Numbered from the stretch's first letter, positions 3,919-64,000 are shown. The stretch is DNA of 64,000 nucleotides from Raja brachyura (GCA_963514005.1 OY740782.1:67828001-67892000), one strand, 5' to 3'. The notes: generated from the sequence alone by a model not told the origin. Program-made: numbers and translations.

Positions 3919-4872
3919 AGCCTCATTCTTCAGGGAACGGTGGTTCCCCTCCCCTACTGTAGATGAGGCTCTCACCAGGGTCTCTTCAATACCCCGTAAC
4001 ACTGCTCTATCTCCCCATCCCCCCCACTCATAACAAGGACAGAGCCCCCCTAGTCCTCACCTTCCACCCCACTAGCCGTCACATATAACAAATAGTCCTC
4101 CGTCATTTTCGCCACCTCCAACGTGACCCCACCACTCGCCACATCTTCCCATCTTCCCCCCTGTCTGCTTTCTGCAAAGACCGCTCCCTCCGTAACTCCC
4201 TGGTCAATTATTTTGTTCCCACCCGCACCACCCCTTCCCTGGGCACTTTCCCTTGCAACCGCAAGAGATTTTACACTTGTTGCTTTATCTCCCCCCTCGA
4301 CTCCATTCAAGGAACCAAGCAGTCGTTCCAGGTCCGCCAGAGGTTCACCTGCACGTCCTCCAACCTCATCTATTGCATCCGCTGCTCTAGATGTCAGCTG
4401 ATCTACATCGGTGAGACCAAGCGTAGGCTTGGCGATCGTTTCGCTGAACACCTCCATTAACAAACCTGATTTCGCTGTGGCTCAGCACTTCAACTCCCCC
4501 TCCCATTCCGAATCCGACCTTTCTGTCCTGGGCCTCCTCCATGGCCAGAGTGTGCACCACCGGAAATTGGAGGAGCAGCACCTCATATTCTGCTTGGGCA
4601 GTCCGCACCCTAGCGGCATGAACATTGACGTCTCCAATTTCTGGTAGCCCTTGCTGACTCTTCCCCTTCTCAGCTCTCCCTCAGCCCTCTGGCTCCTCCT
4701 CTTACTTTCTCCTTTCTCCTTCCCCTCCCCCCCCCCCACCCTACATCAGTCTGAAGAAGGGTCTCGACCCGAAACGTTGCCTATTTCCTTCACACCATAG
4801 ATGCTGCCGCACCCGTTCAGTTTCTACCTTCGATTTTCCAGCATCTGCAGTTCCTAGTTCCTTCTTCAACAA
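3919..4872 (+). mobile_element. Penelope-like element 3' part (GIY-YIG endonuclease plus pLTR)
   Basis: FTCTSSNLIYCIRCSRCQLIYIGETKRRLGDRFAEH and RKLEEQHLIFCLG...GMNID motifs, followed by a pLTR. Confidence 0.9.
4748..4781 (+). ncRNA. Minimal type I hammerhead ribozyme motif in a Penelope pLTR
   Basis: CTGAAGA-A-GGGTC-TC-GACCC-GAAA-CGTT: conserved core, 5-bp stem II and palindromic stem III. Confidence 0.7.
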
Positions 4873-20257: not shown

Positions 20258-20452
20258 TTATAAAATAGTCACTTGGTGGTCTTTCATTGGTACATTATAA
20301 TGTCTGTCATCCTCTGTTATTAGGGTAACCATGGGCCAATCATCCTTGTGATCATCAGGATAATAGGTGATAAACTCATCAGTTCCAAATTTGTAGAGCC
20401 TGAATACTCGAATAGTCACTTGCAAGGAGTATCCCAGAAGAAACATTTCCAC
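20258..20452 (-). CDS. OTULIN: OTULIN terminal coding exon with catalytic His/Asn
   Basis: aacag|GTG GAA ATG. Reads [10 protein letters not shown]...[30 protein letters not shown] corresponds to human H339/N341; C-terminal T-I-L fits a class I PDZ ligand like human ETSL. Confidence 0.95.
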
Positions 20453-31451: not shown

Positions 31452-31721
31452 CTGATCCAGTCCACAAGTGTTGCCGACATGATTCAAATGATTTTTCATG
31501 AACTGATAAGGGTTAGTAGAAGTATCACGAGCAAACATCAGCCAGCAGAATAGAGGGACGTCTTTTTCTTGCACTTTATTGCAGTCGAGTTCAATAGCCT
31601 TAGCCAACATCATAATTTTCACAGCTTCAAACATTGTGTACTGCTCTGTATCGGTCTGGAACAGTTCTTCACAGGCAGCCTTTCTTTCTTCCCAGGAATC
31701 CATTTCACATAAATGAGTGCA
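31452..31721 (-). CDS. OTULIN: OTULIN coding exon (270 nt)
   Basis: cattag|TGC...GATCAG|gtaagg, phase 0/0. Reads CTHLCEMDSWEERKAACEELF...LMFARDTSTNPYQFMKNHLNHVGNTCGLDQ. Confidence 0.95.
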
Positions 31722-36939: not shown

Positions 36940-37065
36940 CTTGTCTTTCAATGCCATCAAATATCCACTCAAGAGTTTCACAGGATTTTCATCCCCAGAG
37001 TCATGAACGCTAAAATACCACTGCTTAATCCAGATATGTTTTTCTCCAATGAGTTTATCTGGTAT
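36940..37065 (-). CDS. OTULIN: OTULIN coding exon (126 nt)
   Basis: ttctag|ATA...AAG|gtgcat, phase 0/0. Reads IPDKLIGEKHIWIKQWYFSVHDSGDENPVKLLSGYLMALKDK (human LPEKLISKYNWIKQW...). Confidence 0.93.
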
Positions 37066-37926: not shown

Positions 37927-38067
37927 CTGGTCCAGATCATCCTGTTGCAGGCATGGAAGTTTTTCAGCACTATGCAATGCTTGAAATAGTGTGGCTCTCA
38001 GAGCACAATAATTATCACCCCGAACTCTGCGTATGGAATTGAAATCTTCACATACAGCTGCATAGGC
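37927..38067 (-). CDS. OTULIN: OTULIN coding exon with catalytic Cys (141 nt)
   Basis: aaacag|GCC...CAG|gtattt. Reads [33 protein letters not shown]..., where GDNYC carries the Cys129 equivalent. Confidence 0.96.
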
Positions 38068-39159: not shown

Positions 39160-39263
39160 ATTTCTTATCAGCTGGGCTTTTGCTGTGTTTCCTTTCCATT
39201 CTCTAGTACAATATTCCAAAATGGCCATGCTGGGTTCAATAGTGGACCTCTCTGAGGCAACTG
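39160..39263 (-). CDS. OTULIN: OTULIN coding exon (104 nt, NAGNAG acceptor)
   Basis: ttttcag|CAG...AAT|gtcagt, phase 1 to 0. Reads VASERSTIEPSMAILEYCTREWKGNTAKAQLIRN (human DYCKKEWRGNTQKA). Confidence 0.92.
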
Positions 39264-41349: not shown

Positions 41350-41429
41350 CTGCAAGCTGGCATTCATCATGCAGCCTTTGGGATTTGTCTTTCTCTATTT
41401 CATCTTCATCGCGGTAAAGGTCTTCCTCT
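41350..41429 (-). CDS. OTULIN: OTULIN PIM exon (HOIP PUB-interacting motif)
   Basis: tttgtag|A...GCAG|gtaatc, 80 nt, phase 2 to 1. Reads EEDLYRDEDEIEKDK (human EEDMYRAADEIEKEK, Tyr56). Confidence 0.92.
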
Positions 41430-44439: not shown

Positions 44440-47400
44440 TGTAATGTATTCATATAGATGTATATGTTAATGAGTTGGTGTTCAATATAAGCAGGGAATG
44501 TTGAGTAGTAAATCTCTCTCTTGTGATCCACATAACCCGCGTGTAAGTTGTTATTCATTCTGCCGTCCGGAATATAACGAAATTGGCAACGAGGATGGGA
44601 TATACTTTGTGAAATCATCCTTTAAATACAATGCAGGACTATTTTGCAACATGCAGTATTGTTTAACATTTTAAACAGAAAATACGGAATTGTGTCGCAG
44701 TTGTTTGCAAATTGGACACGATAGGCTGTAGATCCTTTTATGCAGGGGACTGTAGTTTAAAACAGCAGCTGGATAAATCGTCGAGAGTTTGTCAGGCTGT
44801 CTCTATGTTGTGTCTACTTGGCAAGATGCCGTCCTTGGGATTGTATAAGATTTTTGTTTGTCGAGTTGTTCAAGCTGAATAGCCTTTGTTTTAGGTGAAT
44901 TGTTACGCCAGAACAGACAGGAAATCGGGGTTTTTTTTAAATGGACTTTAAAAAAAATAGAACGACACAATGGCAGTGTCCACGGGCTATCGGAAACCTT
45001 GGCACTTTTTACAAGAGTAGAGCGCCGTTTAGCTCCTACATGGAGAGAGCGAACATGTTTTTCAGGGCAAACAACATAATGGTGCTTAGAGGTGAAGGAG
45101 AGATAGTGACTGAAATAAATAAGGCCATTTGTGAATGCATGAAAGCGATTCTGCTCACGGAGATCGGTCCTGAAGTGTACGCACACTCATGAATCTTCTT
45201 GCGCCCATAAAGGCAAAGGACGTTCCATTCAATGACATTATGAAGAAGTTTTTCATAATGAAGGAGGAGCATTTCAACCCAAAGCCTCTGGAAATTGCAG
45301 CAAGCTATAAATTCGGCATTAGAAACCAGAAGCAGAATGAGACAATCAATGAGTACATTGTTGGCTTGAAAAACATAAGTTTACAATGTAACTTTGGAAC
45401 CTTTCTCAGACGCGCACTATGCGACAGATTTGTTTATGGTCTAATGGATGAACGAATTCGGTCCAAACTCATGAACACTCCAGATCTTACATTCGAGAAA
45501 GCATGCAAGATTGCTACCACAATAGAAGTGGCATCAAAGAATGCTCGTGAGATTCGTCCACCACGGACTGCAGTGGCCGTTTACAGTAACAAGGCAGTGC
45601 CTATGGCCAAATCAAGAGGCGCCAAAGCATCTTGCAAACCAAAGCATGACGGGGAGCCGAGTTCAGCCAGTTGTTATTGTTGCAACGGTAATCACTCATC
45701 CCAATTTTGTCAGTTCAAAATGGCCAAGTGCTATAACTGCCAGAAGAAAGGCCATATCGCCTCAGCATGTCGGGCCAAGTTTAAAACAGGAAACCAACAA
45801 TCTGCGAGAATCAAGCGACAACACCAGAGAGGAGTTCACAACTTGGAGGTGAACCCAGATGGAAATGAAATTGGGTTGTACACCATTTATGCAACCAAAA
45901 TCAATAAGCCTACAACCAGCCAAGGCAAGGACTTTCAAACTAAACTATTGATTAATGAATAGTTATTCGATACGTGTATTGACACAGCAGCAGATATTCG
46001 GTCATGAGCAAAGACCTGTACGAAACAAAGTTCCCACAGAAACCATTGTTTGAGAGTAAGGTCAAGCTGAGAACTTACTCAGGCGAAATTTTGGAGACAT
46101 GTAGCCAAGTGAACTGTAAAGTTCAGCATAATGGTCAGTCAGTAACACTGCCCATCATAGTCGCCAGCTACAGAAATAAACCAACCCTCCTTGGAAAGGA
46201 TTGGCTGAGAGTTAAACTGGAAGAACATTTTCAGCGTCGATTTGTCCAAATCACGTCTTGAAAACGTCATAAGGAAACATGCAAACATTTCTGCTGACAG
46301 TTACACAGGAATAACAGGGAACTCTGCACACATTCGACTTAAACAAGATGTGAGACCTGTGTATTGTTGAACAAGACCTGTACCATATGCACTAAAGCAA
46401 CAAGCAGAGGAAGAACTTGACAGGTTAGAGCGGAATGGAGTACTCGTGAAGACAGACCAGAGTAACTGGGCAACGCCAATTGTGGCCGTACCCAAGGCCG
46501 ACAAAACTGTTCGACTATGTGGTGACTACAAAGTCATAATCAACCAAGCCGTTGATGACGAACAATATCCGTTACCAACCTCGCATGATCTGTATGCAGA
46601 ACTTAATGGAGCAAGAGTCTTCACTAAACTGGATTTGCCTCACGCTTATGCCCAACTCAATGTCAACAAGGAAAGTCAACACACATAAGGGCTTGTATTC
46701 ATATACAAAGCTGCCCTATGGTGTGAAATCCTCCCCTAAAATTTTCCAGTCTGTCATGGACTAAATGTGACAAGGCATTCCAGCACTGTGTGTGCAACCA
46801 GGATGACCTACTGATATTCACAGAGGGCATGGTAGAACATCTGGAATCCTCGAGCAGTTCAATCCACTAAACTGCCACAATGTCAAATTATGACAAAGTA
46901 AATATGCATTTGCGCAGTCAGAATTGGGCTACCTTGGACTCAAAGTGGACACCAACAGACTTCGCCCTGTGAAGGCGAAAGTGGAAGCAATAGCGAATGC
47001 TCCAAAACACAACAATGTGTCAGAGCTACGATCATTCCTTGGGATGGTGCAGTTCTATGCACAATTCCTTCAAGATTTAGCAACTGTGCTAAAGCCACTA
47101 CCTCATCTGCTACAAAAATATGTGAAATGGCTGTGGGGAATGGAACAGCAACGTGCATATGTCATCTGCACGGAAAACTTGACAAATGACAAACTCCTTG
47201 TTCACTACGATACGACACACAAGATGAAACTTGCTTGTGATGCTTCAAGTTATGGTGTAGGTGCAGTGATCTCCCACGTAATGAATGACGGACAGGAAAA
47301 GCCTATTGCTTTTGCATCCCGCACCCTATCACCGAGTGAGCGTAATTATGCACAGATAGAAAAGGAAGCACTCAGCATCGTGTTCGGAATCAAGAAATGC

Positions 47401-49223
47401 CATCAGTTTCTTCTCGGCAGATCATTCACCCTAGTGCCTGATCACAAGCCACTACTAGTGATACTTGGTCCCAAGTCAGCTATACCTTCCATGGCGGCAT
47501 CAAGAATGCAGCGCTGGGCAATTTTGCTGTCCCAGTAAAGGCTACAAGTACAGAAGCTTCAAGTGCAATGCAGTTGCAGATGCGTTGTCACGGTTGCCCC
47601 ATGAGAACTTTGACGTGGGAAGTGAGAACTCAATCTACACACTGCAAGTTGTAGATGAAGACTTTTCAGTGACTGCAACAGAAATTGCACCAGAAACAGA
47701 GAAAGACACTGTGCTGAAGAGAGTCTATGAACAGACATTGAATGGTTGGACTGAAATCGATAGTGGATTTAACTCAGTTCTGGACTCAGAGCTGAAGCCT
47801 TTCCATAATCAACGCCATGAATTATCATGTGAGGAGGGATGCATTAAGTGGGGTTACAGAGTGGTTGTACCAGAGTCTTTGAGAAACAAAATTATGAATG
47901 AACTTCATGCCAACATCCTGGCATAGTAAACATGGTCAATTGCCAGACGTTTTGTGTATTGGCCCAGTATTGACAGTGACATCGAGTCACTGGTGAGCAA
48001 ATGTAGTGTCTGCCAAAATTGCTGGAGTAAACCACCAAAAACACCACTGCAACCCTAGTCATGGCCAAGTAGACCTTTTCAGAGAGTTCATGTAGATTTT
48101 TGTGAAAAAGGTAATGATCATTTTCTGGTACTAGTAGATAATCATTCCAAATGGATTGAGGTTAAGCACATGGGGTCAAGCACTACTACTGAGTGTACCA
48201 TAGATGAGTTGAGATCAATTTTTGCATGCCATAGTTTACCGGAAGAACTTGACAAGTTTCTGATAACGGGCCTCAGTTTCGTTCAGAACGGTTCAAAGAG
48301 TTCATGCAGCGGAATGGTGTAAAACACACACTTGTTCCCCCCATACCATCCAGAGTCCAATGGGGTGGCGGAAAAGTCTGTTAGAGTTGTCAAAGATACT
48401 CTCAAGAAACAGGTTTTGCAGGGTAGTTCAAAGCTCAGCATGAAACATCGTTTGGCTAGTTTCATGCTGAAGTACAGAACCACACAACACACAACGGGTT
48501 ACTCACCTGCAGAACAGTTGAGGAAGAGAAGGCTAAGAATACGCCTGTCTAGTTCAACCCAATTTGGCCTTGAGAGTTGAACGAAAACAGTTACATCAAA
48601 AACGACATTTTCACTCCCACAAAAAGGAGAGGTACTTCAAGCCAGTTGAGCAGGTTTGTGTTCTCAGTCCTCCCAACAAGTCCAGTCGAGACAAATGTGA
48701 TGTTGGGAAAATAGTGGAAGTGTGTGGAACAAAAAGATACTTAGTTGGAGATAGGATCAAAAGTGTTCATGTTGATTCCAGCCAAAGATGAACCAAAAAC
48801 TGAATATGAAGCCCTAATCCCTGAGTTTGTATCTGAAAGTGAGTTGGAAGAGACCACTGTGATTGAAACACAAAGTTCAGGTAGTCAGAACCTGTAAACC
48901 AGTAGTCAGATTAGGTTTGTAAGTTAAGTAACTCACTGTATAAGTAAAACTAAAATATGTAGATAGGTAAAATAAATATGTTTATCATTTAAGATTTCAT
49001 AAATACTAGTTTAAATCAAGTATCACAACAATAAAATTGTAACTGAGTACTTAGATTTAATACTTTAAAAAAGGAGAGCAGTAATGTATTCATGCATATT
49101 CATGTATATGTTAATGAGTTGGTGTTTAATATAAGCAGGGAATGTTGGGTAATAAATCTCTCTCTCGTGATCCAGGCAACCTGCCGGTAAGCTGTTATTC
49201 ATTCTGCCCTCCGGAATATAACA
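44440..49223 (+). mobile_element. Ty3/Gypsy LTR retrotransposon (Mag-like), full span but degenerate
   Basis: LTRs 44440-44579 and 49080-49223; TSD GTCGC; PBS TGGCAACGAGGATGGGAT (44584-44601, one mismatch to the tRNA-Ser(GCT) 3' end); PPT about 49067-49078. Gag with two CCHC fingers, protease IDTAA, RT, RNase H (CDAS, NYAQIEKE) and integrase (YHPESNGVAE). Confidence 0.95.
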
Positions 49224-49681
49224 GTCGCTATAACCAAAATCCATTATAAAAGGATGTTTATAATGAACGTTTACTATATCAACAGTCACGTCTTCAGTTT
49301 ATAGCCATGACAGTACATTAACATTTCAAAGTGGAAGGCAAATAAATGTCAGGCACCATTCCAAGGCACATCAGATGAAAAAAATGCCACAGGTTTAAGA
49401 TTAACAATGAACATGAAAAATGAATACAATGACAATTGCCTTTTCCTCCGCTAAGTGCAGAAATAGTCTCATTGCAGACCTACTTTCATAAGGCCAAGAA
49501 ATGATCAAAGGATACCATCAAGATGAACCAAAACTATATTTCTCTGTTCGACTGCAAATCAGAATTATGTTGCATTCCATGCCGCATTATTTAGAAAAAA
49601 TGCCTAGCTTTGAAGTCAATTCAGGAAATGTTCATATTTGTACCCAGTAAATAGCGAAGTAAAATCCAAGTTGCAACATAC

Positions 49682-49951
49682 CCATCATTTCCTTCCTGAT
49701 TGCAGACCATATGAACATTAGTATCCGCAGCAACGGAAACATCATTTTTAAAGAGGTTATCTTTTGTTTCCAATAATTCTGTTTCTTTAAAAACCTGTTC
49801 AGTTGCTTTCACACTGGTATGGATATGTTCACTTTGCTGGTGGTTCCTCATCCCTATTCCAAAATCCAACTGTTCACTTTCTAGATGTTTTGCTCTGGTT
49901 TCATCCTCATGAATCGTCACTTGCGTCTGACCAAACTTTTTTTCATGGTCT
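49682..49951 (-). CDS. OTULIN: Inferred OTULIN N-terminal extension exon (270 nt)
   Basis: T-rich tract, ttagtag| acceptor and GG|gtatgt donor. Open frame DHEKKFGQ...QEGNDG, phase 2/2, joining the PIM exon in frame. Non-repetitive sequence. Confidence 0.7.
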
Positions 49952-50141
49952 CTACTAACACAAAAAACAAACAAGCATTACAAAGATATTTCAAAAACAA
50001 GGCAACAACAGCACTAGGTTTACTGCTGTCTGGCTTGCAATTGTGACTCAGGCATGCCTCTATTATCTATTAAATTAATTATGGTCAAAACAGCACTGAT
50101 CAATAAACTATTTATCAAAGAAACACAGTGTGAAAGATTCA

Positions 50142-52176
50142 TTTTATAGATGCGCTGGGACACATCCTGAGTGATGTGACCTGGGATCATCGGGTGTTTC
50201 GTGTCTCACAACATCAGACACCCTTGCCCAGGCGACCCAGCCGGGGTTGATCAAGCCCCGACTTGCGTCCCAGCAGCAACCGCCCACGGATCAGCCCTCT
50301 TAATCCAAAGCCACCTAGTAGCTTCCTCTGCGGCTTCACTTGCGGATTGAATGGCCCTCTTCTTTGCCAGCCCTGTAATGCCCAACTGGTTGAGGACTTT
50401 GCAGAGTGAGCGTCCTGCAAAGCCTCTACAGCCCACCTCTATCGGCTCATAGTATGTCTTCCAGCCTCTGTCCTGGCACATCTCCACCAGTTCCTGGTAC
50501 TTTGCGTGCTTCCTCTCATTAGCCTCTTCAATACGCTCTTCCCAGGGCACTGTCAGTTCCAGAATGATCAGCTGTTTTGTCACTTCGGAGGTGATGATCA
50601 TATCTGGCCGGAGTGATGTTGCTGTGATGTGCTGTGGAAATTTCAGCTGTTTGCCCAGATCGACATGCAGCTGCCAGTCAGTGGCTGTGTAGAGGAGGCC
50701 CGTCCTTGATTTTGTTGTGGTTGGGGTTTCTCTCCAGCATTGACAAAAATGATTGATTTCTTTGGTGCATGGTGGTGTTTGCTGTTACTGATGGCAATGG
50801 CTATGCTCTCAGCAACCACCTTGAGCACCTGGTCATGCCACCACCGATAGCGACCTTCCCCAAGAGACTTTGGGCAGCTGCTGAGGAGATGTTCTAATGA
50901 TCCTCTTCCAGAGCAAAGTGGGCAGGAAGGTGTCTCGCTCTTGCCCCAGACGTGGAGGTTTGCTGGACTTGGTAGGGCATCGTAGACAGCTTGGACAAGG
51001 AACCAGACGCGCTGGAAGTCTGCCTGCATGATGTTTGACCAGGTAATCCTGCGCTGTGGTATGCTCTCCCACCTTGTCCACGCTCCCTGCTGCCTGAGCC
51101 CCACCGTCCTGTTGACACGCTCTTCCTCCACACCTGCTCGGACCTCTTTCTGCATTAGATGGCATCTCTCCTTGCCCTGGGCCTTGCCAACCGGTGTCTT
51201 AGGGAAGTATCCCAAACCCGCTCTGCCAGTTGCCATGACTCCCACCAATGCCTTTTGCCTTAGGCGTGACTCTGCCACCTCCACTGCTTTCGCCGCCCTC
51301 CATTTCCTCCTTGTTCTCACCTCAATGACAGCCGTGACGCCTTCTGGTCCCTGGAGTCCCTGTACTGCAGTGCTTCTCTTGTTCGCGCCACCATAAACTC
51401 TTCCGTGAGGCCACTGAACGGGAGCTGCAAGATGTTACTGGTCCCATACAATGCACCACTGTTGAGGCTGCGGGGAAAGCCAAGCCACCTGCGGAGAAAG
51501 CCGCTGACCTTCCTTTCGGGGGACTCAACTGTGGTCAATGGAACAGCGTAAACCAGCAGAGGCCACAGGACTCAGGGCAGGATGGAATGCTGATAGATCC
51601 AGGCCTTGAATCTGCCTGGCAGACCCGACTTGCCGACTTTGGTGAGCCAGGCTTCAAGGTCTTTGGTGGACTTTTGACTGGCGACAGAGTCTTTCAGAGT
51701 TGCATCAAAAACCGTCCCCAAACTCTTGACAGGTTGCTCAGTGATGGAGGAAATGGCAGTTCCGGATAGTAAGATGTGGAATCTGTCAGTCACCTTCCCC
51801 TTCTTCAGCACCATGGACCTTGACTTCATTGGCTTGAAACTCATCATTGCCCAGGTGATAAGTTTCTCAAGACCTTGTAAAATCCTGGGACCGATGTTGT
51901 GGTGATGGTAAGGTCGTCCATAAAAGCTCTAATTGGGGGCTGTCACACACCAGACTTGGTTAGGGGGCATCTGCATTCCACCTCGGCTGACTTGGCCACC
52001 ATATTCATGGCAAGAACAAAAATAACAGAAATGGTGCATCCCGTAATTATTCCTTATCCAAGCTGATGCCAGTCTGATGTTTCGGACCCAGAAGTCACCC
52101 TCAGCCTGCAACTATGGTAATAATCCAGGATCAGGTCCTTGATCTTGCTGGGAACATGGTGTCGCCAGCTCAACCA
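50142..52176 (-). mobile_element. Hero-clade (RLE-type) non-LTR retrotransposon, 5'-truncated
   Basis: RT remnant (FMDD), CPLC..EHLLSSC knuckle, WHDQVL, RPDM...LELTVPWEE and K..KY restriction-like endonuclease motifs, ending in WLWIKR. Confidence 0.85.
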
Positions 52177-53377
52177 GAAATGTTAACTCTTGCTATAAAA
52201 TTAAAACACATTTTTTTTTTTCCACTCAAGTACAACCACATCCTATTGTAATTATACTTCTCAAATCAACAGATCCAATGTAAAGGAAAACAGCACTAGC
52301 AGTTATATCTTAACTAAGAATGAGTGACTAATGGTTACACATGTTAATCAATGGTTAATAATAACATGGTTAACTAATAATTAAGGTGGCCAAGCAGAAA
52401 GAGATACAAGGGGAGCAGGAATTTTCTGGGTGGCAAAGGAATAAAAAACAAGGTACCCAATTCAGCAGATTAAATATCAGGGGAAGAGATTAGATTCAGT
52501 AACTGTAAGATTTTCAATGCCACGAGATATCCCAAGATTCCAAAATAATGCCTGCAATGTATGTGTACTCTCTGGGCACAGAATGTGAAGGACACTCACT
52601 GGTGAAGGAGGTAGCATGAGAACACCCAGCTTGTGCCACAAGGGTGGAGTGTGAGCAGATTCAATCAGAATGAATTGCTGACTTGATCTCATGCTGGCAT
52701 CTTGACGCTCCACATTCCTATCTTCTCTGAACCGGTCAAGCAGATCCCATGTTATATGGAATGTAGCATCTTGAGGTAGCACAGCTCCCTTTTTATTCCT
52801 TTATTTCTGGCAAGTCAAAACTAAGCCTTAAGTCACTTCAAAGGGTTTATACCGGGTGGCAGCCTTGCCACTAGTCTGTCTCGTCCCTTTCTTCTCTTGT
52901 TGCTTTTAGTCTAGTGTTAAATGTATATTTTAGAGTGTTTTTAATTTTGCATTATGTGGAGGAAACTTTTTTTATCTTTCCTCAACGGAGATGCAACTTT
53001 TCATGTGTCATATCTCCGTTTGCAATGCGGCCTAACATCGTGGAGCTGGCGGCCTCTTGCTGGCGATTGACTTTGGGAGCTCCAACCACGGGAGCCTGCG
53101 GATTTAACATCGTGGAGCGGGCGATCCCTTTGTCAGGGATCGGCTTCGGGAGCATCAATCACAGAAGCCTCGACCACCCTGACATGGGAGCATCGATTGC
53201 CAGCTGCGGAAGGTTCGATCGCCCCAACTAAGGATGGTTCAATTGCCCCGACCGTGGGAGAAAAGGAGGGGGGGAAGATAAAACTTTATTGCCTTCCATC
53301 ACAGTGCACTGTGGTGGATGTTTATGTTAACTTTTATGAAGTTGTGTGTCTTGTTGCTTTTTCTTGGTATGACTGAA

Positions 53378-56127
53378 AATAGTAAGATTAAACGGGAACT
53401 TACCAGTTTGAAGCTTGATCTTTATTTTATGAGGCGTTACGATGAGGGATTACATGACGTATCCATACAACGTGGTTGCCAGATATGACGTGGTTGCCAT
53501 ATAACAACCTTTTCATATCAGCTGCTAACCCTAACATAAGAATTTAGTCGGGTTAGGTCCAGAATGATTCGACACCCACCATCCTTTTTATGCCTGGGGA
53601 ATATATTGGACACAAATTGTTGAGGATGATATGCTGTCCTTTCAATTACCTCTTTTTGGAATAAAACCCCAATTTCATCATTCACCTGTAGAGTTTCTGG
53701 TCCTGAAAAAAACAATACCCAACTAGGCGTATTTTGTGCGGGTGGATGTATTCCTGACATAAGCTCAATTTGAGACCCCCGGACACTGTCCAGTATAACT
53801 AGATCTGATGTTATGCAGCACCATTCGTCATAAAACAATTGCAACCTACCCCCGACCGGAAGCTGCTCCCCAGAGGATATATCCTGGACTGAACCAGTTA
53901 CTCGTCCCACCATAGCTGATCTCAGATTTCTCAACCTCCTGTAATAGTTGGGGGTGTGAACGGCGTGTAGCTGGAAACCCTCTGCTTGGTCCTTGACCTG
54001 CTCCAGCGTCTGTAGCCCGCCTGAAGGGAAAAGGCTTCAGGTGGTATCCTGACCTAGGGTATATAGGTTTTAATGAGGCTGATGGTTTTTGCCTCTTCCT
54101 CGAGATCTTTAACTTGCTTCGCCAGGTCTTCACCAAATAGAAAATTGAGCGCATTGAGCCGCAAAGCGTGGATTGAGTGTTGGCTTTATGGCGATCTTCC
54201 GGATGCAGTTGAGCTCAAAATGAGCATTGCACAGCAGGGCCAACATATCCTGCTGTGTACCTGACATCAGCGCTCCTTGGACCATTCGCCCAAACGCTGT
54301 TATCCTCGCCCCCACCAATTTGAGGACTTTATGGAATCAGACTTCTTGCCCCCTCATAGATGCGCTCATTTGCCCCCAGATGTCAGAGTTTACGGTGGGC
54401 ACCTTGAGCGACGCACAGTTAACAGATGTCTGCTAACGAAGCGATGCTTCCTCCATAATGGAGTCCTGGAGCTGGTGAGAGGCCATATAATTAATGTTGC
54501 TGGCCAGATTATCCTCCATGGCTTCACCATAGAAACATAGAAACATAGAAAATAGGTGCAGGAGTAGGCCATTCGGCCCTTCGAGCCTGCACCGCCATTC
54601 AATGTGATCATGGCTGATCATCCAACTCAGTATCCCGTACCTGCCTTCTCTCCATACCCCCTGATCCCTTTAGCCACAAGTGCCACATCTAACGCCCTCT
54701 TAAATATAGCCAATGAACTGGCCTCAACTACCTTCTGTGGCAGAGAATTCCAGAGACTCACCACTCTCTGTGTAAAGAATGTTTTCCTCATTTCGGTCCT
54801 AAAGGAATTCCCCCTTATCCTTAGACTGTGACCCCTTGTTCTGGACTCCCCCAACATCGGGAACAATCTTCCAGCATCTAGCTTGTCCAACCCCTTAAGA
54901 ATTTTGTAGGTTTCTATAAGATCCCCCCTCAATCTTCTAAATTCCATCGAGTACAAACCGAGTCTATCCAATCTTTCCTCATATGAAAGTCCTGACATCC
55001 CAGGAATCAGTCTGGTGAATCTTCTCTGTACCCCCTCTATGGCAAGGATGTCTTTCCTCAGATTTGGAGACCAAAACTGTACGCAGTACTCCAGGTGTGG
55101 CCTCACCAAAACCCTGTACAACTGCAGTAGAACCTCCCTGCTCCTATACTCAAATCCTTTCGCTATGAATGCTAACATACCATTTGCTTTCTTCACTGCC
55201 TGCTGCACCTGCATGCCTACTTTCAATGACTGGTGTACCATGACACCCAGGTCTCGTTGCATCTCCCCCTTACCTAATCTGCCACCAGTCCCCTCCGGTA
55301 TGGCAAAATTTCTGGCCACATCCAGGACACCTGAAGCATGGCTCATGAGCTTTGGTGTATGCACAAGAGCAGTGACACCAACTTCAGGGTCAAATTCCTC
55401 CTGCCCTGGCTCTCCCAAGCCTTGCTCTAGGGAGGTATCACCCAGCCCTAAACAAGGTGCTGGTGATGGGGATTCCCACTGGAACTCGTAGGTGTGCTGG
55501 TAGTCCTCCTCGCCATACGGGCCTCGGCCTGAGGCCGCTCCAGGAAGCCTGGGGGTATGTGACCCCGACTGGAACACTCCATGGTTTAACATTCGCTCAA
55601 TCAATTGTTCCATCTTTTCAAGATGTCCCCAGACCTTCCTGTTTGAAGGAGGGGAGTCTTCCTGGTCAGACTCATCCGAGTCAACAGGCCTGACTGATTT
55701 TCTCATGGCCTTCCTCCCGACAGGTGGCCACAGCGCTCTGAGGCACCGGAGTTGATGGAATCAGCTGAGCTGCCAGCGGTTCTGTAGTCGGCGTCCTTGG
55801 AACCGGCGTTACTGAAGCCGGTGTTTCCCTAGCCGACCTACGCTCACTAACCGTGGTCCCATGGGTAAATATTTTGCTCCAAACGGCAGCAGCCTCTTTT
55901 GTTATTCTCTCCATTCTGAGTTTTCTCCCGCTGGCTCTTGAAACCAGCCTTACGGAGTTTAAATAACCGCAGAAAGTTGTTTAAAACCACTTACCTGCTG
56001 GTTTGTTACTTACCGCTGGTGGAGCTGCGCTCTCCAGCCCATTGGTGCGCCATGCGTCGGACGTAATGACGCGCATGCGCCTGGCGGGGCTTCTTCACGT
56101 AGTCACTCACGTGACTCCGAAGTAAAA
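53378..56127 (-). mobile_element. DIRS1-like retrotransposon copy 3 (internally deleted)
   Basis: Both termini match copy 2. Gag and the RT N-terminus (FPRHKKDGGCRIILDL) are present; RNase H, MT, YR and ICR are missing. Confidence 0.9.
54530..55282 (-). mobile_element. Young CR1 3' fragment nested in DIRS gag
   Basis: Uninterrupted ORF2 C-terminus, (TTCTATGT)n tail, CACCA duplicated at 54525-54529 and 55283-55287. Confidence 0.92.
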
Positions 56128-56199
56128 TGGCAAATCAAATTCTTTGTATGTTCTTCTTACATACTTGGCTAATAAATGTCCTTGTAATCCTTGTAAAAG

Positions 56200-56622
56200 T
56201 GGTTAGTTTAGTTCAGTTTATGGTAACGTGTACCAAGGTACAATTTTGTTGCATGCTAACCAGTCAGCGGAAAGACTATACATAATTACAATTGAGCCAT
56301 CCACAGAGTACAGATACATGATAAACAAGGGTTAGTGCAGATAAAGTCCAGTAAAGTCCGATTGAAGATAGCCTGAGGGTCTCTAGTGGGGCAGGTAGTA
56401 CCTCAGGACTGCTCTCTAGTTGTTGATAGAATGGTTCAGTTGCCTGATAACAGCTGGGATGAAACTATCCCTGAATTTGGAGGTGTGCGTATTCGCACTT
56501 CTGTACCTTCTGCCCCGATGGGGAAGGGGAAGAGTGACCAGACTGAGGCTTGTCCTTGATTTTGTTTGTGGACTTGCCGCGGCAACATAAAGTGTAAATT
56601 ATGTCAATAGAAGGGAGGTTGA
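56200..56622 (-). mobile_element. Rex1/Babar-like LINE 3' fragment
   Basis: LPSIDIIYTLCCRGKST and FRDSFIPAVIRQLN-type sequence. Confidence 0.65.
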
Positions 56623-56713
56623 ATGTTAGATGCAAGGTTATGGAAGGCAAAAATAAATGATGAAAAATAAAGTGCAATTAATCAACTGGCCAGAGCTTAA
56701 ACAGAGGACCCAC

Positions 56714-56932
56714 CCATCACTCGAATCACATTGAGATTGTTTAGCTATTTTTGCCTGCTTGTCAGAATCTTCCGAATCAAACAAATGTCTTCTCTCTGCA
56801 GATCCTGGTAACGGGTCCCTCTCACATTTTTCTGGCGCAGAATCCAATGGCTGGTTGTTTTCGTAATTTTGAATTGTTTTGTTCACAACCATGCCAAAAT
56901 TCTCTTGTTCGGTTTTTTCAATTACTTCACAG
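56714..56932 (-). CDS. OTULIN: Inferred OTULIN N-terminal extension exon (219 nt)
   Basis: ctaac branch-like site, cctag| acceptor and GG|gtgggt donor. Open frame CEVIEKTEQENFGMVV...QCDSSDG, phase 2/2. An alternative in-phase acceptor exists at 57010. Confidence 0.65.
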
Positions 56933-57279
56933 CTAGGTTTTAGAAGACAGTTAGAATCATGTTTTAGTGATACTAATATCCAATCAAGACATTTTTCAGA
57001 ATGTAGACATCTGCATATGTTTACAAAACAGCATTTTCAATATATTAATCACAGCGATACTTTTTCCCTAAAGTGTACATTGACCAAGTTTTACATCAAA
57101 ACAATTAAAACCCTTGAGTTGGTCAATTTACCCGTTGACACTGCTTCCCAATTAGAGTGCTGGTGAATTTTAGTAACAATTCTTATTTCATTCAATTATT
57201 TGGCACAATAGCTATTTTCTATGTCTCCTTCCAAAATTAACCAAGTCAGTTGTTGTTGGTGCTTTAGTCTCCGACAAGA

Positions 57280-57540
57280 GGGCAGCATTGTGGCGCAGCA
57301 GTAGAGGTACAGTGCCAGAGACACGGGTTTGATCCTTTCTTTTGTACATTCTCCCTGTGACCTCATCAATTCGGTGCTTTGGTTTCCTTCCACATTCCAA
57401 AGACGTGCACTTTTGTAGGTTAAATTGGATTATGTAAAATGTCCCTATGTGTGTAGGATAGAGTAGGGTACAGGTGATGGCTGGCCGGTGCGGAAGTGGG
57501 CTGAAGGGCCTGTGTCCACGCTATTTCTCTAAACTAAACA
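57280..57540 (+). mobile_element. tRNA-derived SINE (HE1/V-SINE-like)
   Basis: A-box TGGCGCAGCAGTAG, B-box-like GGTTTGATCC, CR1-like tail ctaaactaaac. Confidence 0.75.
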
Positions 57541-58449
57541 AAAAAGAATGAGTGTATCCAATAAGCTACTTAATGTGATAACTATTTTACAATTACTGGA
57601 AATAACAATTATATACCCTTGTCCCTGAGAATGATCAATCATATTTCAAGCAAGCTTTTTATTAATCTTGCTGTTGATACACATAATTGATTTTAACATG
57701 TTTTTTACATTTAAACTGGTTTTAAACTATATTCTGCAGACTGATAATAGTTGAACTGTGAATTGGACATCGAGAAAGCACTTGATGTTAATAAATGGGG
57801 TTTATTTGCAAGTCTCAGGAGTAAAAATTATAAATTATAAATTTAATTCAGATGTAAATCAGCTCCCAGTCTAACCGAACATGCTTTCAAGAGAGTTAGA
57901 TTTAGCTCTTAGGGCTAAAGGAATCAAGGGAACGGGGAACTAATTTTAGATGATTAGCCATGATCATATTGAATGGCAGTGCTGGCTCGAAGGGCTAAAT
58001 GATCTACTCCTGCACCTATTTTTCTATCTTTCTAGTGAACAAATGATGAAAGCTGTGTTTGCATTAAGGCCATATCAGTATGAAATGTATATGACCACAT
58101 AGTAAGAAATTTTGGTTAGTTTCAAACATCCAAAGACAGATTACCAAAACCCAATGAAATAGTAACCCAGCAAAAGTGTAATCCCAATCTTGTATTAAAA
58201 TACTGACTACAAGGTTTGTCTTGCTTAACTAACTAGTCCAGAGAGGCATGGTTAAATATGCCTGCTGTACACTGGAAAGGTATTAATAATATAGCACATG
58301 TGAAATAAACACAAAGCAAGTTTTGCTTTAAGTTGCATGTAGCACATTCCGTAGACAGTTACCTTGACTTCCCACTCTAGCAAACAAATGTCTAATTACT
58401 CCAGAAACTAATGTACATTGGAAAACAATGTTGCAGTATTCAATGTTTA

Positions 58450-59150
58450 ACAAGGAGCTGCAGATGCTGGAAAATCGGAGGCAGACAAAAATGCTGGAGA
58501 AACTCAGCGGGTGCAGCAGCATCTATGGAGCGGTCTCAAAGCCCTCCGTTTCTTCCTTGATCGGAGAACCAACCAATCCCCGTCTTCAGATACTCTCCTC
58601 CGCCTAGCAGAGCTGGTCCTTACCCTAAATAACTTTTCGTTTGACTCCTCCCATTTCCTCCAAATACAAGGCGTAGCTATGGGCATGTGCATGGCTAGCT
58701 ATGCCTGCCTCTTTGTAGGATACGTCGAACAATTCTCGTTCGAGACGTACCAGGGTCCCATCCCCGATCTCTATCTCTGCTACATCGATGACTGCATTGG
58801 TGCTACCTCCTGCATCGACACACACAACTCACTGACTTCATCCATTTCACCACTAACTTCCATCCAACACTCAAATACACCTGGTCCTCCGTCATTTTCG
58901 CCACCTCCAACGTGACCCCACCACTTGCCACATCTTCCCATCTCCTCCCATCTGCTTTCCGCAGAGATCGCTCCCTCCGTAACTCCCTTGACTATTTGTC
59001 CCTTCCCACCCGAACCACCCCCTCTCCGGGCACTTTCCCTTGCAACCGCAGGAAATGCTACACTTGCCGCTTTACCTCCCGCCTTGACTCCATTCAAGGA
59101 CCCAAGCAGTCTTTCCAGATGCGGCAGAGGTTCACCTGCACCTCCTCCTC
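58450..59150 (+). mobile_element. Penelope-like fragment with an inverted 5' pLTR
   Basis: QIQGVAMG and YIDD RT motifs, preceded by an antisense pLTR. Confidence 0.85.
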
Positions 59151-59184
59151 CAATACTCTTTGAATCCAGCTATCCCTGCACTGA

Positions 59185-59470
59185 GGTGGCACGCTGGCTC
59201 AGCAGTAGAGTTGCTGCCTAAGAACACCAGAGACTGGGGTTCGATCCTGACTACGGGTGCTGTCTCTATGCAGTTTGTACCATCTCCCGTGACAGTGTCG
59301 GTTTTTCCCGGATGCTCCAGTTTCCTCCAACTTTGGCTTTGGAAAAAATTGTAAATTGTCCCTAATGTGTAAGATAATGTTAGTGTACAGGGATCCTAGG
59401 GAATACAATCCCTGCACGGACTCGGTGGGCCAAAGGGCCTGTTTCCGCAGTGTATCTCTAAACTAAACTT
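59185..59470 (+). mobile_element. tRNA-derived SINE (HE1/V-SINE-like)
   Basis: A-box TGGCTCAGCAGTAG, B-box GGTTCGATCC, tail tctctaaactaaact. Confidence 0.8.
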
Positions 59471-59479
59471 TACACTGAA

Positions 59480-60862
59480 CTCATCCTCACAAACCTTGAT
59501 TCCATCCTAAGCCCCCTTTGTCCAATCCTTTCCCACTTTCACCTGAGGCACCTCACAGGCCCTTCAACTCTTTAATAACTTTCAGTTTTTACACTTCCAG
59601 TCACTCATCTTTACCATGGACATCCAATCCCACTACATCTCCACCCCAGGAAAGTCTCAAGACCCTCTGTTTTTTCCTTGAACAGAGGAGACCCAACCAA
59701 TTTTCCTCTCCTTTTACTCTCCTCCACTGAGCGGAACTTGTCCTCACTCTTAACAACTCTTTTGACTCACTTTCTCCAAGTTAAAGGTGTAGCCATGGGC
59801 ACTTGCATGGTCACCAGATATGCCAGCCTTCTTTGTTGGTTACGTTGAACAGTCCTTATTCTTACCATTAACTGGTCATTTCCTCTAACTCTTCTCTACT
59901 ACATTGGCAACCGCATTGGGGCTGCTACCTGCACCCATGCAGAACTCATGGACTTCATTAATTTCACCACTAACTTCCACCCTGGCCTCAATTTCACCTG
60001 TACTATCTCTGACACCTCTCTCCCCTTTCTTGATCTCTGTTTCCATCAAAGATGACAAACTATCAACTGACATTTACTACGAACCCACCGACTCCCACAG
60101 TTATCTTGACTATACATCATCCCACCCAGACTGTCTTTATACCTCCTCTCTTGACTCCATCCAGGGACCCCAGCAGTCCTTCCAGTGAGATAGAGGTTCA
60201 TATGCACCACCTCTAACCTAATTTATTACATCCAATGTCCCCGATGTGGGCTACTGTACAAAGTGTAGACTTGGCAACCGTTTCGCTGAACATTTAGGCT
60301 CGGTCCGTCCGTATAGGCCCACAGGATGTCCCATTTTCTAACCATTTAAACTCTTCTTCCCATTCTGAACTGGACCTCCTCCATAGCCAGAGTGATGCCA
60401 CATGCAAAATGGATGAACAGCATCTCATATTTCCCGTGGGCAGCTTACAAGTCATCAGTATGAATGTTGAATTCTCTAATTTCAGGTAACTTCTACAAAC
60501 ACCTCTCCCCCTCCTCCCATCACTCTCCCTCTCCCCCCCATTTCACCCCCTTATTCCACTAAAGGTTGGTTAACTAGTTCCACAGCTCACAACGATACAT
60601 CCTTCTTATGTGCACACCATCCCTATCCAACAATTGTCCTATCAGGGAGTCTCCTTGCCTGAGGTCATCTGTTGCCAGTTCTGATTTGTCCTGTTATTAT
60701 TCTCTCTTCCGGTTTCGTCTCCCGACACTATAATCAGTCTGAAGAAGGATTCAAACCCAAAATGTCACCTTTCCATTTCTCCAGAGGCGCTGCCTGACCC
60801 GCTGAGTTACTCCAGCATTTTGTCTATCTTTGGTAATAAACAAGTGTCTGCAGTTCCTTTTT
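59480..60862 (+). mobile_element. Degenerate Penelope-like element with 3' pLTR
   Basis: DIYYEPTDSHSYLDYTSSHP, GIY-YIG remnants and a degenerate hammerhead near 60738. Confidence 0.82.
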
Positions 60863-61094
60863 ATTACCAATCTGGTAAGTCTGCATTGCTGCTTCTCCTA
60901 GACCAAGAGATCTTTCCTGCAGTCTGTTATCTAAAACTGATCACAGAACTCTACGTGACAATGGCAACGATACTTTATTGTCATGTGTACGTAAATACAG
61001 CGACATTCTTTGTTTCTGCCCACAATCTGGTAAAATCATACTCTGGATAAGCACAATCATAGATAAATACAAAAGTACAATGATTGGAGTGGAA

Positions 61095-61632
61095 GACAAC
61101 AGATAATAGACAATGGGTGCAGGACTAGGCCATTTGGCCCTTCGAGCCAGCACCGCCATTCAATGTGATCATGGCTGATTATCCCCAATCAGTACCCCAT
61201 TCCTGCCTTCTCCCCATATCCCCTGACTCTGCTATTTTTTAAGAGCCCTATCTACCTCTCTCTTGAAAGTATCCAGAGAACCAGCCTCCATCGCCCTCTT
61301 AGGCAGAGAATTCCACAGACTCACAACTCTCTGTGAGAAAAGGCGTTTCCGAATCTCCATTCTAAATGGCTTACACCTTATTCTTAAACTGTGGCCCCTG
61401 GTTCTGGACTCCCCCAACATCGGGAACATGTTTCCTGCCTAGCGTGTCCAAACCCTTAACAATCTTATATCTTTCAATAAGATCCCCTCTCATCCTTCTA
61501 AACTCCAGAGTATACAAGCCCAGTCGTTCCATTCTCTCAGCATATGATAGTCCCGCCATCCCAGGAATTAACCTTGTAAACCTAAGCTGCACTCCCTCAA
61601 TAGCAAGAATGTCCTTCCTCAAATTAGGGGAT
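61095..61632 (-). mobile_element. CR1 3' fragment
   Basis: SPNLRKDILAIEGVQ...RTRGHSLRI followed by the 3' UTR. Confidence 0.9.
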
Positions 61633-62202
61633 CTGGCGGCGGCAAGGTCGGTGTGGCAGGGGTGACCTGCCCAGCGATGCTGTGTGTCTTCCACCGCTCC
61701 ATCCCGCTGCAGGCCGTGTCTGATACAAGCCCTTGTCCGACCTCTGCGGGGCCTCCAACAGCGCCCGAATCTCGCGATCTCCTGGCTGCTGCAGGGCCTC
61801 CAGCAGCCCAATTCACCAGCCCCTTGCCTCTCGCAGCCACCACTCAGCCTCCACGCTCTGGGTTACCTCTAGCAGTTGGCCTCGGAACTCTCCAGAGCAC
61901 TTCCAAGGGTGCAGGAGGCAAGCCCACTGCCTGCTGGGAGACAGCAGCTCTACCAGCTGCACCTCTGTGCTAACCTCCCCATCCCCAATCCCATATACTC
62001 AGTACTTTAATAGCCAAAATTATTCAAATTTGCAATTCATAAAAGCATTGAAATAAACACCACTTTTGTGGTGGTTTCTGTTGGATGGCTACGAGTTCAT
62101 ATTCCTTTTCATCAAATCACCAAGTCATAGGCTAATACATTGAAAGTGTACTGAAGCAGATGTAAACCGTGAAATTAGCAGAACTGAAAACAAAAAAAAT
62201 AC

Positions 62203-62411
62203 CTTTTACAATCCTCAGTGTTGTCAGTTCCATTTCTTGGCTCTGATGGATCCTCGCTGCCTGATTTATGAGGAGATATTGATTGCTCTTTAACATCATT
62301 TGTCTTGCATGAACTGGTATTGGTAACATGCAGTAAAGCTTGTTCACTCTCAGCCATAGATTTCACCTCACTTTGGCAATGTGTCCATTTACAGCACACA
62401 GCATTGCCCAT
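62203..62411 (-). CDS. OTULIN: Inferred first coding exon of OTULIN (MGNAVCC...)
   Basis: Strong Kozak aaaATGG, in-frame TGA upstream at 62468-62466, donor AAG|gtattt in phase 2. An acceptor ttctgttgcag| at 62599 implies a 5' UTR exon outside the window. Confidence 0.68.
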
Positions 62412-62840
62412 TTTAATCTTTACTGAGAAAGTAATCCATGATTGTCCGGCAATCCTACAGAGCTGTCATGCAACGTTTGCACACTGTTGCCTGAACCTCT
62501 AAAGGTGAGTGAAGGTGATATCAGATGCCTGAAGTAAGAACTAACTCCTGGGTTTAAATGTTTTTGACATTCACCAATTATATTGGTGAATTGATTTACC
62601 TGCAACAGAAAAGAACTGTTAAAAAACAAAAATAACTTATTGCGTGCTATTTTCTTATTTGAACAGGAATTGTCAAAATAATACGCAAATTAATAATATA
62701 TAATGCTTGCGCACATTTCATAGCATTTTTTAAATTAAATATATTGGTTGGTATTACTTGACAAATAATACACAACCTTCTTGACTTTAATATTGTGTAT
62801 TGCCCAGTTCTTAAATGATTAATTTTAACATTCATCCATT

Positions 62841-63466
62841 CGGCTGGCGCCAGCAATGGCTGCCTCGCCAACAGTCGGTCTCATCCCTTCCTTCTTTCTT
62901 GTTTTTTTTTTAGTATGTTTTAAATATATGTTTTAGTGTTCTTTAGCTTGTTTTATGTGGGGGGGTGGGGAACTAATTTTAATTTCTTACCTCGACTGAG
63001 ATGCAATTTTTTTTCCATATCGTATCTCCGTTCTCACTGCGGCCCAACATCGAGGTGCTTGCGGCCTCTGCTGGAGACCGACTTTGGGAGCTTCAACCGC
63101 GGGAGCCTACAGAACTTACCATCGTGGAACTCGTGATCCCTGTCGGGAATCGACCTTGGAAGCTCCAACAGCGGGAGCCTGTGGAATTCAACATCGTGGA
63201 GCTCGTGGTCCCTGGTTAGAGACCGACTTTGGGAGCTCCAGGCCCCAGTAGCTTTGACCACCCCGACGTGGGAGAATAAAGAGGAAGAAGTATGGACTTT
63301 ATTGTTTTCCATCACAGTGAGGAATGTGGGGAATCTGCTGTGGTGGATGTTTATGTCAGCTTTTATATAGTTGTGTGTCTTGTTTTTTTTAGTATGGCTG
63401 TATTGTAATTTGGGTTTCACTGTACTTTAGTTGGTACATGTGACAATAAACTGACCTTTGAACCTT
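62841..63466 (+). mobile_element. Non-coding SINE-like repeat with 72-bp internal tandem units
   Basis: Units start at 63049, 63121 and 63193; AATAAA plus a short-repeat tail; paralog at 52842. Confidence 0.6.
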
Positions 63467-63749
63467 TATTACTAATGGTACGCTGGTCCATGTTGCGTAA
63501 TGCAAAATGAGCTCAAGTCAATTAGCAGAAACACTGGAGTTCTTGCAAGAAACAAGTTTATGATTGGCGTGTTTTCAATCTCTCCAGCCCACCAGTCATT
63601 AACTTTTATTTGAATTGAATTGAAGAAGCGAGTTTGGTATTCCAAAAAAGGCAAGGAATCATGGGATTTGTCAAAGGTCACTCATTGTAAAGAAAAAGTT
63701 ATGAAGCGCTGACTGTATAAACTGTGTATAAATTCTTATCTTTATAAAG

Positions 63750-63868
63750 ATAGCAGAGTCAGGGGATATGGGGAGAAGGCAGGAACAGGGTACTGAGTAG
63801 GGATGATCAGCCATGATCACATTGAATGGAGGTGCTGGCTCAAAGGGCAGAATGGCCTTTGCCTGCAT
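63750..63868 (+). mobile_element. CR1 3' UTR fragment
   Basis: ggggatatggggagaaggcagg...atgatcacattgaatgg, as in other CR1 ends here. Confidence 0.8.
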
Positions 63869-64000
63869 CAATTGTCTATTGAGCAGAACATCCTCCTCAT
63901 CAGACTTGTCACTGTCAGGATGAGGTCCCGAGGCAGATGCTGCAGCTAGGTCTTCTCCAGTGTCAGGCCTCCTTGCCCTCATCCCTCCTGCAGGCCACAA

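Follow-up and report, generated by a model that had tools for sequence, protein, structure and literature searches.

An N-terminal extension with a predicted lipid anchor and an acidic dileucine motif in skate OTULIN

A 64,000-nucleotide (nt) stretch of the genome of the skate Raja brachyura (GCA_963514005.1, OY740782.1:67828001-67892000), hereafter the window, holds on its minus strand the gene for the deubiquitinase OTULIN. The encoded protein of 537 amino acids (aa) starts with MGNAVCC, a predicted double acylation site, followed by an acidic dileucine motif and a long linker of predicted disorder, before the PUB-interacting motif (PIM) and the catalytic OTU domain are reached. Comparable starts are found in OTULIN records from chondrichthyans, ray-finned fishes, lungfish, and caecilians. 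The reading considered reasonably probable here is that the ancestral OTULIN of jawed vertebrates was dually acylated, as its descendants' sequences predict, and sorted to endolysosomes, and that the anchor was lost in amniotes.

Among deubiquitinases, none but OTULIN is known to act strictly on Met1 linkages. OTULIN is also the cause of ORAS, an autoinflammatory disease, and descriptions of it give a cytoplasmic protein of 352 aa and three modules (PMC13487742). Its N-terminal 80 aa are poorly conserved, except for the PIM (PMC4017264). A review (PMC7862380) counts its route to particular membranes and its control of autophagy and mTOR signalling among the open questions.

Gene structure, splicing, and orthology

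With the proteins of skate relatives as guides, the coding sequence (CDS) was rebuilt as nine exons (Table 1), totalling 1614 nt and encoding 537 aa and a stop codon; all eight introns are of the GT-AG type. The first three coding exons, proposed in an earlier note from the genomic sequence, are open, bounded by GT-AG sites, and each in phase 2 (209 nt of CDS, 219 nt, and 270 nt), and their splicing in frame has been confirmed. Contigs from four sequencing runs, belonging to four studies, were placed on positions 49400-64000, and one contig in each run carries these exons adjacent to each other, without introns. The run types were guessed or are not on record, none being recorded as RNA, and one run flagged as probable DNA (X11) still gave a spliced contig. 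The contig from run X17 (2278 nt, depth 120) holds the three exon pieces contiguously at 1184-1453, 1454-1672, and 1673-2071 of the record, with 0 mismatches and 0 gaps across 888 nt; this run therefore comes from the same organism or from one nearly identical to it. Intron-free contigs derive from mRNA or from a retrocopy, and the perfect match favours mRNA.

Among the junctions that the earlier note had put forward for checking, 62203/56932 and 56714/49951 are thus joined in all four runs. The third, 49682/41429, lies outside the stretch on which contigs were placed and was unseen in reads, but it is supported indirectly. The X17 contig extends 1183 nt past 49682, where 916 nt of CDS remain, and the junction is present in RefSeq models of three skates and in Logan skate proteins of 521-539 aa, which span the border between exon 3 and the PIM exon on contigs of 1.8-2.8 kilobases. 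When exon 1 was used alone as a query, three proteins were obtained from four candidates, all of them skate-type OTULINs (466-539 aa, 83-84% identity); their clusters comprise RefSeq models from Rhinoraja, Amblyraja, and Leucoraja, as well as a 67-member cluster with Logan proteins, of which 40 members were read and 15 listed. Exon 2 is left out of 466-aa RefSeq isoforms in two skates. In the intron after exon 4, a tandem acceptor (CAGCAG, 39263-39260) offers an alternative site 3 nt downstream, adding or removing one Ala, and both forms are annotated among skate RefSeq isoforms.

Table 1. Features of the OTULIN gene in the window (positions counted from the first nucleotide of the window).
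Feature	Position	Strand	Content
5' untranslated part of first coding exon	62412..62599	-	Behind a splice acceptor; contig pieces end at 62598-62601 in 4/4 runs
Upstream open reading frame, 8 codons	62413..62439	-	Strong Kozak context; stop 1 nt before main ATG
MGNAVCC	62391..62411	-	Gly2, predicted N-myristoylation; Cys6/Cys7, predicted S-palmitoylation
Met19	62355..62357	-	Candidate alternative start for a 519-aa form without the anchor
Acidic dileucine E21-S-E-Q-A-L26-L27	62331..62351	-	Glu at -5 and -3, Ser at -4
Coding exon 1	62203..62411	-	aa 1-69; acylation motif, Met19, dileucine motif; spliced contigs
Coding exon 2	56714..56932	-	aa 70-142; phase-2 cassette exon; degenerate K[KR]x[KR]-hydrophobic motif (56760-56746)
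Coding exon 3	49682..49951	-	aa 143-232; acidic linker of low hydrophobicity
Coding exon 4	41350..41429	-	PIM, EEDLYR, aa 234-239; Y238 (human Y56)
Coding exon 5	39160..39263	-	Y277, W282 (human Y91, W96)
Coding exon 6	37927..38067	-	Catalytic C315 (38007-38005); matches to PDB OTULIN and PF16218
Coding exon 7	36940..37065	-	OTU domain
Coding exon 8	31452..31721	-	OTU domain; L444 (human L259)
Coding exon 9	20258..20452	-	E499, D521, H524, N526, C-terminal VTIL, stop

The gene is the ortholog of OTULIN (FAM105B), in agreement with the earlier note. The Peptidase_C101 domain is present, exon 6 alone matching PF16218 above the cut-off (E 1.2e-15) and OTULIN structures in PDB (E about 2e-11). By comparison with 352-aa mammalian OTULINs, the catalytic triad is kept as C315/H524/N526 (Cys129/His339/Asn341), together with D521 (Asp336) and Y277 (Tyr91). 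The residues that bind ubiquitin at the S1 and S1' sites are kept as well (W282, L444, and E499, equivalent to W96, L259, and E314), the roles of triad and S1/S1' residues being those given in PMC3690481. The equivalent of E95 is conserved, and those of K116 and E287 differ. The PIM is of the EEDMYR type, with Met55 replaced by Leu and the tyrosine retained (residue roles in PMC4017264). From these residues, we infer that skate OTULIN would hydrolyze Met1 linkages specifically and bind HOIP.

Since catalytic residues are also retained in non-mammalian FAM105A, the paralog OTULINL (PMC5381560), orthology rests on the PIM and the tree, and not on the triad. Trees of the catalytic domain were built with 64 rows (quick) and 30 rows (careful), a frog sequence being the one row named OTULINL. 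The window protein nests among skates, within chondrichthyans (100/100), in a 20-row OTULIN clade that includes the mammals (94/92, just under the starred level) and leaves out both frog OTULINL and a fish paralog whose N-terminus is hydrophobic. Identification of the gene as OTULINL was rejected, a clade of chondrichthyans plus OTULINL having a p-AU of 0.006. A transmembrane anchor in the extension was rejected as well, on a maximum 19-aa hydropathy of 0.28; with its PIM present, the skate protein shows neither the hydrophobic N-terminal segment nor the missing PIM that mark OTULINL. No second, short chondrichthyan OTULIN occurs among the best 120 of 600 matches listed, most of which are proteins of 400-700 aa, and zebrafish OTULIN was not retrieved by name. 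Representatives of 50% clusters include teleost-type proteins of 600-1100 aa.

Other members of the family were observed alongside. A third clade, apart from OTULIN and frog OTULINL in the trees, is formed by the P0251/P0290 cluster (sturgeon, paddlefish), P0231, and P0259, which combine a hydrophobic N-terminal segment with a PIM-like acidic-Tyr stretch. Some long proteins of the family (P0194, P0195, P0199, P0212, and P0243), each hydrophobic over an N-terminal stretch, fall outside the vertebrate clade where tested. Membrane attachment may, judging from such sequences, recur across the OTULIN family by different means. Lastly, shark isoforms of Carcharodon, Cetorhinus, and Rhincodon (P0041-P0044) have the anchor and the PIM, with the segment of the catalytic Cys missing; these records would be exon-skipped or mis-annotated, and the encoded proteins would be inactive LUBAC binders.

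The predicted anchor and the acidic dileucine motif

The main ATG has a strong context (AAAATGG), and MGNAVCC stays N-terminal because an in-frame TGA (62468-62466) lies inside the same exon. For the observed splice form, this rules out an upstream coding exon that would make the motif internal. The earlier note had reported both the context and the stop, while overlooking that the exon begins at about 62599, behind an acceptor, and that it holds three upstream ATGs, one of which, at 62439 (ACAATCATGG), is also in a strong context. The ATG exon is probably not the first of the transcript: 88-973 nt of each of the four contigs extend further 5', unplaced among the listed pieces. A candidate acceptor 11 nt before the ATG is unused by the four listed contigs. 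In addition, a low-depth X17 contig (depth 5.4, 0 mismatches) covers 62600-62829, upstream of the acceptor in use, and corresponds to a retained intron, an alternative 5' end, or DNA.

The extension is predicted from its composition to be disordered (FoldIndex negative over aa 31-233), in line with the disordered tether suggested earlier. Its three exons gave no Pfam match, and an ESM Atlas search with aa 1-40 gave one match, at 0.78, within chance. The linker is about 31-39% identical between the skate and sharks or chimaera, and the PIM plus OTU domain 63-76%. At the very start, M1, G2, C6, and C7 are invariant in a 32-row alignment of OTULINs beginning with MG..CC. Gly2 and a Cys among the first ten positions (here C6 and C7), the marks of a LAMTOR1/Ego1-type anchor, are both present.

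The distribution of MG..CC starts was counted in the first 80 residues of named protein records, with isoforms, partial models, and duplicates included and unnamed records left out, so that the figures are records and not species. The start occurs in 31/36 chondrichthyan, 1/1 lungfish, 3/4 caecilian, 8/12 sturgeon/paddlefish/gar, 5/17 teleost, and 1/14 frog records, with sharks, rays, chimaera, sturgeons, gar, teleosts, lungfish, and caecilians among the carriers. It is absent from the one salamander record and from all amniote records (turtle 0/8, crocodilian 0/3, squamate 0/14, bird 0/54, and mammal 0/76). The earlier suggestion of an extension peculiar to this lineage is, therefore, not tenable, whereas the conservation of Gly2 and the cysteines that it called for is found. 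With carriers in chimaera, sharks, ray-finned fishes, lungfish, and caecilians, the annotated proteins are most simply explained if MG..CC arose once, in the ancestor of jawed vertebrates; the extension with its predicted anchor is most likely the ancestral state, and the short soluble human form would be derived. None of the three findings that the earlier note named as fatal to its proposal (no reads joining the exons to the PIM exon, an upstream coding exon, or unconserved Gly2 and cysteines) was made.

Some sequences without the motif may record its fate. In turtles (P0083, P0097, P0374, and P0377) and one alligator isoform, an MGN start is followed by cysteines that have moved or gone and by EQKTML- or PKTMLL-type sequence, and in a second alligator isoform (Alligator records P0145 and P0387), a GC-rich N-terminus is joined to the same downstream sequence. 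These are apparent remnants of a decayed acylation exon and a possible intermediate in the loss by amniotes. Xenopus laevis (P0061) and Spea bombifrons (P0081) have another N-terminus, Cys-rich, polybasic, and without a dileucine, which suggests a switch to another membrane anchor.

The second element of the module, overlooked in the earlier note, is the dileucine. Catalytic-domain proteins of at least 430 aa with MG..C near the start (87 proteins) provided 64 distinct N-termini, 52 of which contain a strict [DE]xxxL[LI] within the first 45 aa, the first Leu standing at 17-29. Control windows elsewhere in the same extensions contain it in 18 of 421 cases, and shuffling residues 3-45 (2000 rounds) yielded 1.3 on average and never more than 7, although the 64 N-termini are related and the shuffle counts are, thus, not independent events. 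In the N-termini with LL or LI (n=57), Glu is at -4 in 52, an acidic residue at -5 in 36, and Gly or Ala at -1 in 35. Ten lineages, represented by one carrier each and picked as motif carriers, agree on Glu at -4 and Leu at 0 (10/10) and on Leu at +1 (9/10); other columns within 10 residues reach at most 6/10, and the gap from CC to the Leu varies from 13 to 20. With the dileucine near-invariant and its distance from the cysteines variable, selection on the motif itself is indicated.

Of 42 non-mammalian OTULINs tested, 27 have a further short motif in the extension, K[KR]x[KR] followed by a hydrophobic residue, against a mean of 2.8 and a maximum of 9 in shuffles. This motif resembles the consensus of a monopartite nuclear localisation signal, and it is retained in squamate and frog OTULINs without a lipid anchor. 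In the window, it is degenerate (KQAKI, aa 128-132, 56760-56746) and lies inside the cassette exon skipped in the 466-aa isoforms.

Location, rival readings, and significance

Ancestral OTULIN was likely fixed to a membrane, probably endolysosomal, instead of free in the cytosol. In the mechanism proposed, N-myristoyltransferase (NMT) would myristoylate Gly2 once Met is removed, and a DHHC enzyme would palmitoylate the Cys pair. An adaptor protein (AP) complex, most likely AP-3, would then read the dileucine, and the anchored OTULIN would leave the plasma membrane for the limiting membrane of endolysosomes. Thanks to the disordered linker, about 200 aa long, the PIM would be able to hold HOIP/LUBAC and the OTU domain to trim Met1 chains near that membrane, for example, at damaged lysosomes or pathogen vacuoles. 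In amniotes, the anchor would have been lost and another N-terminus would be in use, mammals reaching endosomes via their SNX27-binding C-terminus; skate OTULIN retains the lipid sites, with perhaps weaker sorting.

Lam1 of fission yeast, human LAMTOR1, and Ego1 of budding yeast share the Gly, the Cys, and the acidic dileucine; replacing GCC by AAA makes Lam1 cytosolic, and replacing Leu21/Leu22 by Ala lets it spread to the plasma membrane (PMC5752196). Lipidated cargo such as Ego1 likewise shows at the plasma membrane without AP-3 (PMC8859911). The [DE]xxxL[LI] motifs bind AP-1, AP-2, and AP-3, of which AP-3 accepts Ala or Ser at -1 and AP-1 prefers Pro (PMC3418312). A lysosomal function is plausible: at damaged lysosomes, Met1 chains are kept in check by human OTULIN (10.1101/2023.10.06.560832), which also acts at endosomes by way of SNX27 (PMC7862380).

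Several points, besides the kinship of the N-termini, weigh against an ancestral endolysosomal anchor. No experiment was found that addresses whether any long OTULIN is acylated, where it is located, or whether it is active. The module is not traced to the vertebrate ancestor, MG..CC being absent from the lamprey records (0/4), and it is missing from 5/36 chondrichthyan, 4/12 sturgeon/paddlefish/gar, and 12/17 named teleost records; the absence from amniotes was judged from annotated proteins and not from genomes. A consensus match is itself insufficient, since two of three [DE]xxxL[LI] motifs in OCA2 are inactive (PMC3418312), and such motifs also serve endocytosis by AP-2. The window dileucine, with Ser at -4, fails the strict consensus, as do those of three other skates, which are among the 12 N-termini without the strict motif. 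It is one residue short compared with Pristis, Narcine, Hypanus, and Mobula, the other batoids having a strict ExxxLL. A Glu at -5 does function in the TYRP1 signal, but this motif binds AP-1 only and not AP-3 (PMC3418312). Given the shortened spacer, endolysosomal sorting may be weaker in skates. In the skate transcript, moreover, the upstream open reading frame precedes the main ATG, and six of the eleven listed Logan members of the skate cluster (521-aa forms) begin at Met19, which may be a choice of the gene caller.

The strongest rival, which fits skates most and is regarded as unlikely overall, has dually acylated OTULIN working with LUBAC at the plasma membrane and at endosomes of the early or recycling kind, near TNF and Toll-like receptor complexes, with the dileucine serving as an AP-2/AP-1 signal for endocytosis or recycling. 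The breadth of AP binding, the partial plasma membrane location of Lam1 without its dileucine and of lipidated AP-3 cargo without AP-3, and the dileucine-free N-terminus of Xenopus laevis and Spea speak for it. On the other side, layout and spacing are close to those of the LAMTOR1-type anchor (first Leu at 17-29, and at 21-22 in Lam1), and Pro, the preference of AP-1, falls outside the six residues found most often at -1. It is distinctly improbable that the module is real in the family while skates make mostly anchor-less, soluble OTULIN, the upstream frame suppressing the first ATG and reinitiation occurring at Met19. The strong context of that frame, the 521-aa Logan forms, the dileucine shortening by one residue that is peculiar to skates, and the degenerate basic motif of the window would agree with this; however, G2, C6, and C7 are kept in four of four skates, aa 1-30 are 77-87% identical among them versus 80-85% for the linker, the Met19 codon has a weak -3 base, and automated start calls on transcript contigs are unreliable. 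A cytosolic long OTULIN, with the Cys pair as a metal or protein contact and the dileucine as some other binding site, is very hard to believe: human OTULIN is cytoplasmic (PMC3690481), but Gly fixed at position 2, CC at 4-10, and a dileucine whose internal spacing is kept though its flanks diverge form the pattern of acylation and AP sorting.

The earlier note had pictured a lipid-anchored, active Met1 editor on a tether. Ortholog, residues, splicing, and conserved Gly2/Cys support this picture, of which acylation, activity, and location are predictions. A broader scenario is offered tentatively, with doubt slightly outweighing belief. When it arose in jawed vertebrates, OTULIN would have been an enzyme resident at lysosomes, with a LAMTOR1-style double lipid anchor and an AP-3 signal fixing it and LUBAC to the endolysosomal membrane as eraser and writer; alternative starts and the cassette exon would yield soluble or nuclear-type forms; amniotes would have dropped the anchor, and the lysosome, xenophagy, and mTOR phenotypes of human OTULIN would echo the ancestral address.

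The apparent novelty lies in recognising the anchor-plus-sorting module and its loss in amniotes; the long proteins themselves are known. They are already in RefSeq, often under the names 'uncharacterized', 'nestin-like', 'midasin-like', or 'fap1 adhesin-like', and several non-mammalian OTULIN sequences in the 2013 discovery alignment were noted there to be N-terminally truncated. Truncated sequences and misleading names may explain why the module went unremarked. It was not found in the titles and abstract openings of the literature searched, subscription papers lying outside this search. The words 'evolution', 'zebrafish', and 'isoform' are absent from the 2026 OTULIN review (PMC13487742), 'myristoyl' from the 2020 review (PMC7862380), and 'otulin' from the main text of the myristoylome paper (PMC10994533). 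If most anamniote orthologs do carry a conserved anchor and sorting signal, they would supply a natural tethered OTULIN for the membrane questions raised by a much-studied disease gene, the textbook soluble form of which is probably derived. If this is true, fish OTULIN models would not mirror the location of the human protein, and N-terminal tags on fish constructs would block the anchor.

The ANKH gene, which lies downstream of OTULIN at the human locus, gave no family match in the 110 plus-strand frames of at least 45 aa at 1-21000, a search that short exons can escape; the gene may lie beyond the window. Broken remnants of mobile elements occupy introns and downstream sequence at about 45170-48580 (plus), 50250-51930 (minus), and 53520-55760 (minus), with others at 22100-24030 (minus), 5255-6017 (plus), and 4089-4457 (plus). 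Judged by eye, their open frames are LTR-type, LINE-type, and DIRS-like; the pieces include a Tc1-type transposase fragment (PF01498, E 8.8e-12) and a weak GIY-YIG match, and several are abundant in the placed sequencing runs.

Comparison with known systems

Src-family kinases and G-alpha-i, which are dually acylated at Gly2 and a nearby Cys, were the model in the earlier note. This analogy leaves the conserved acidic dileucine unexplained; with that motif following the cysteines, the closest analogue is instead the anchor of the LAMTOR1/Ego1 type. LAMTOR1 (p18), Ego1, and Lam1 likewise combine Gly2, a nearby Cys, and an acidic dileucine about 20 residues into the protein (PMC5752196). Unlike OTULIN, they are Ragulator scaffolds and not enzymes; the likeness is one of layout, and homology is not claimed. 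The skate dileucine is one residue short of their consensus, whereas non-skate orthologs with MG..C mostly have the strict motif.

Human OTULIN (FAM105B, PF16218) is the ortholog, with about 51% identity over the PIM and OTU domain (153/299, 352-aa mammalian protein). The triad, the PIM tyrosine, the S1/S1' residues, and a C-terminus of the class I PDZ type are kept in the skate. In contrast, 233 aa precede the PIM in the skate protein and about 51 in the human one; the skate protein also has Gly2/Cys-Cys and the acidic dileucine, and its C-terminal VTIL is without the acidic residues of mammalian EETSL. OTULINL (FAM105A) is a paralog with an OTU domain that is also located at membranes (PMC7862380). 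Nevertheless, it is anchored by a hydrophobic segment (hydropathy of 1.94 in frog OTULINL versus 0.28 in the skate), and human OTULINL is localised at the endoplasmic reticulum, inactive, and without LUBAC binding (PMC7862380), whereas skate OTULIN combines a predicted lipid anchor with a conserved PIM and a complete catalytic triad.

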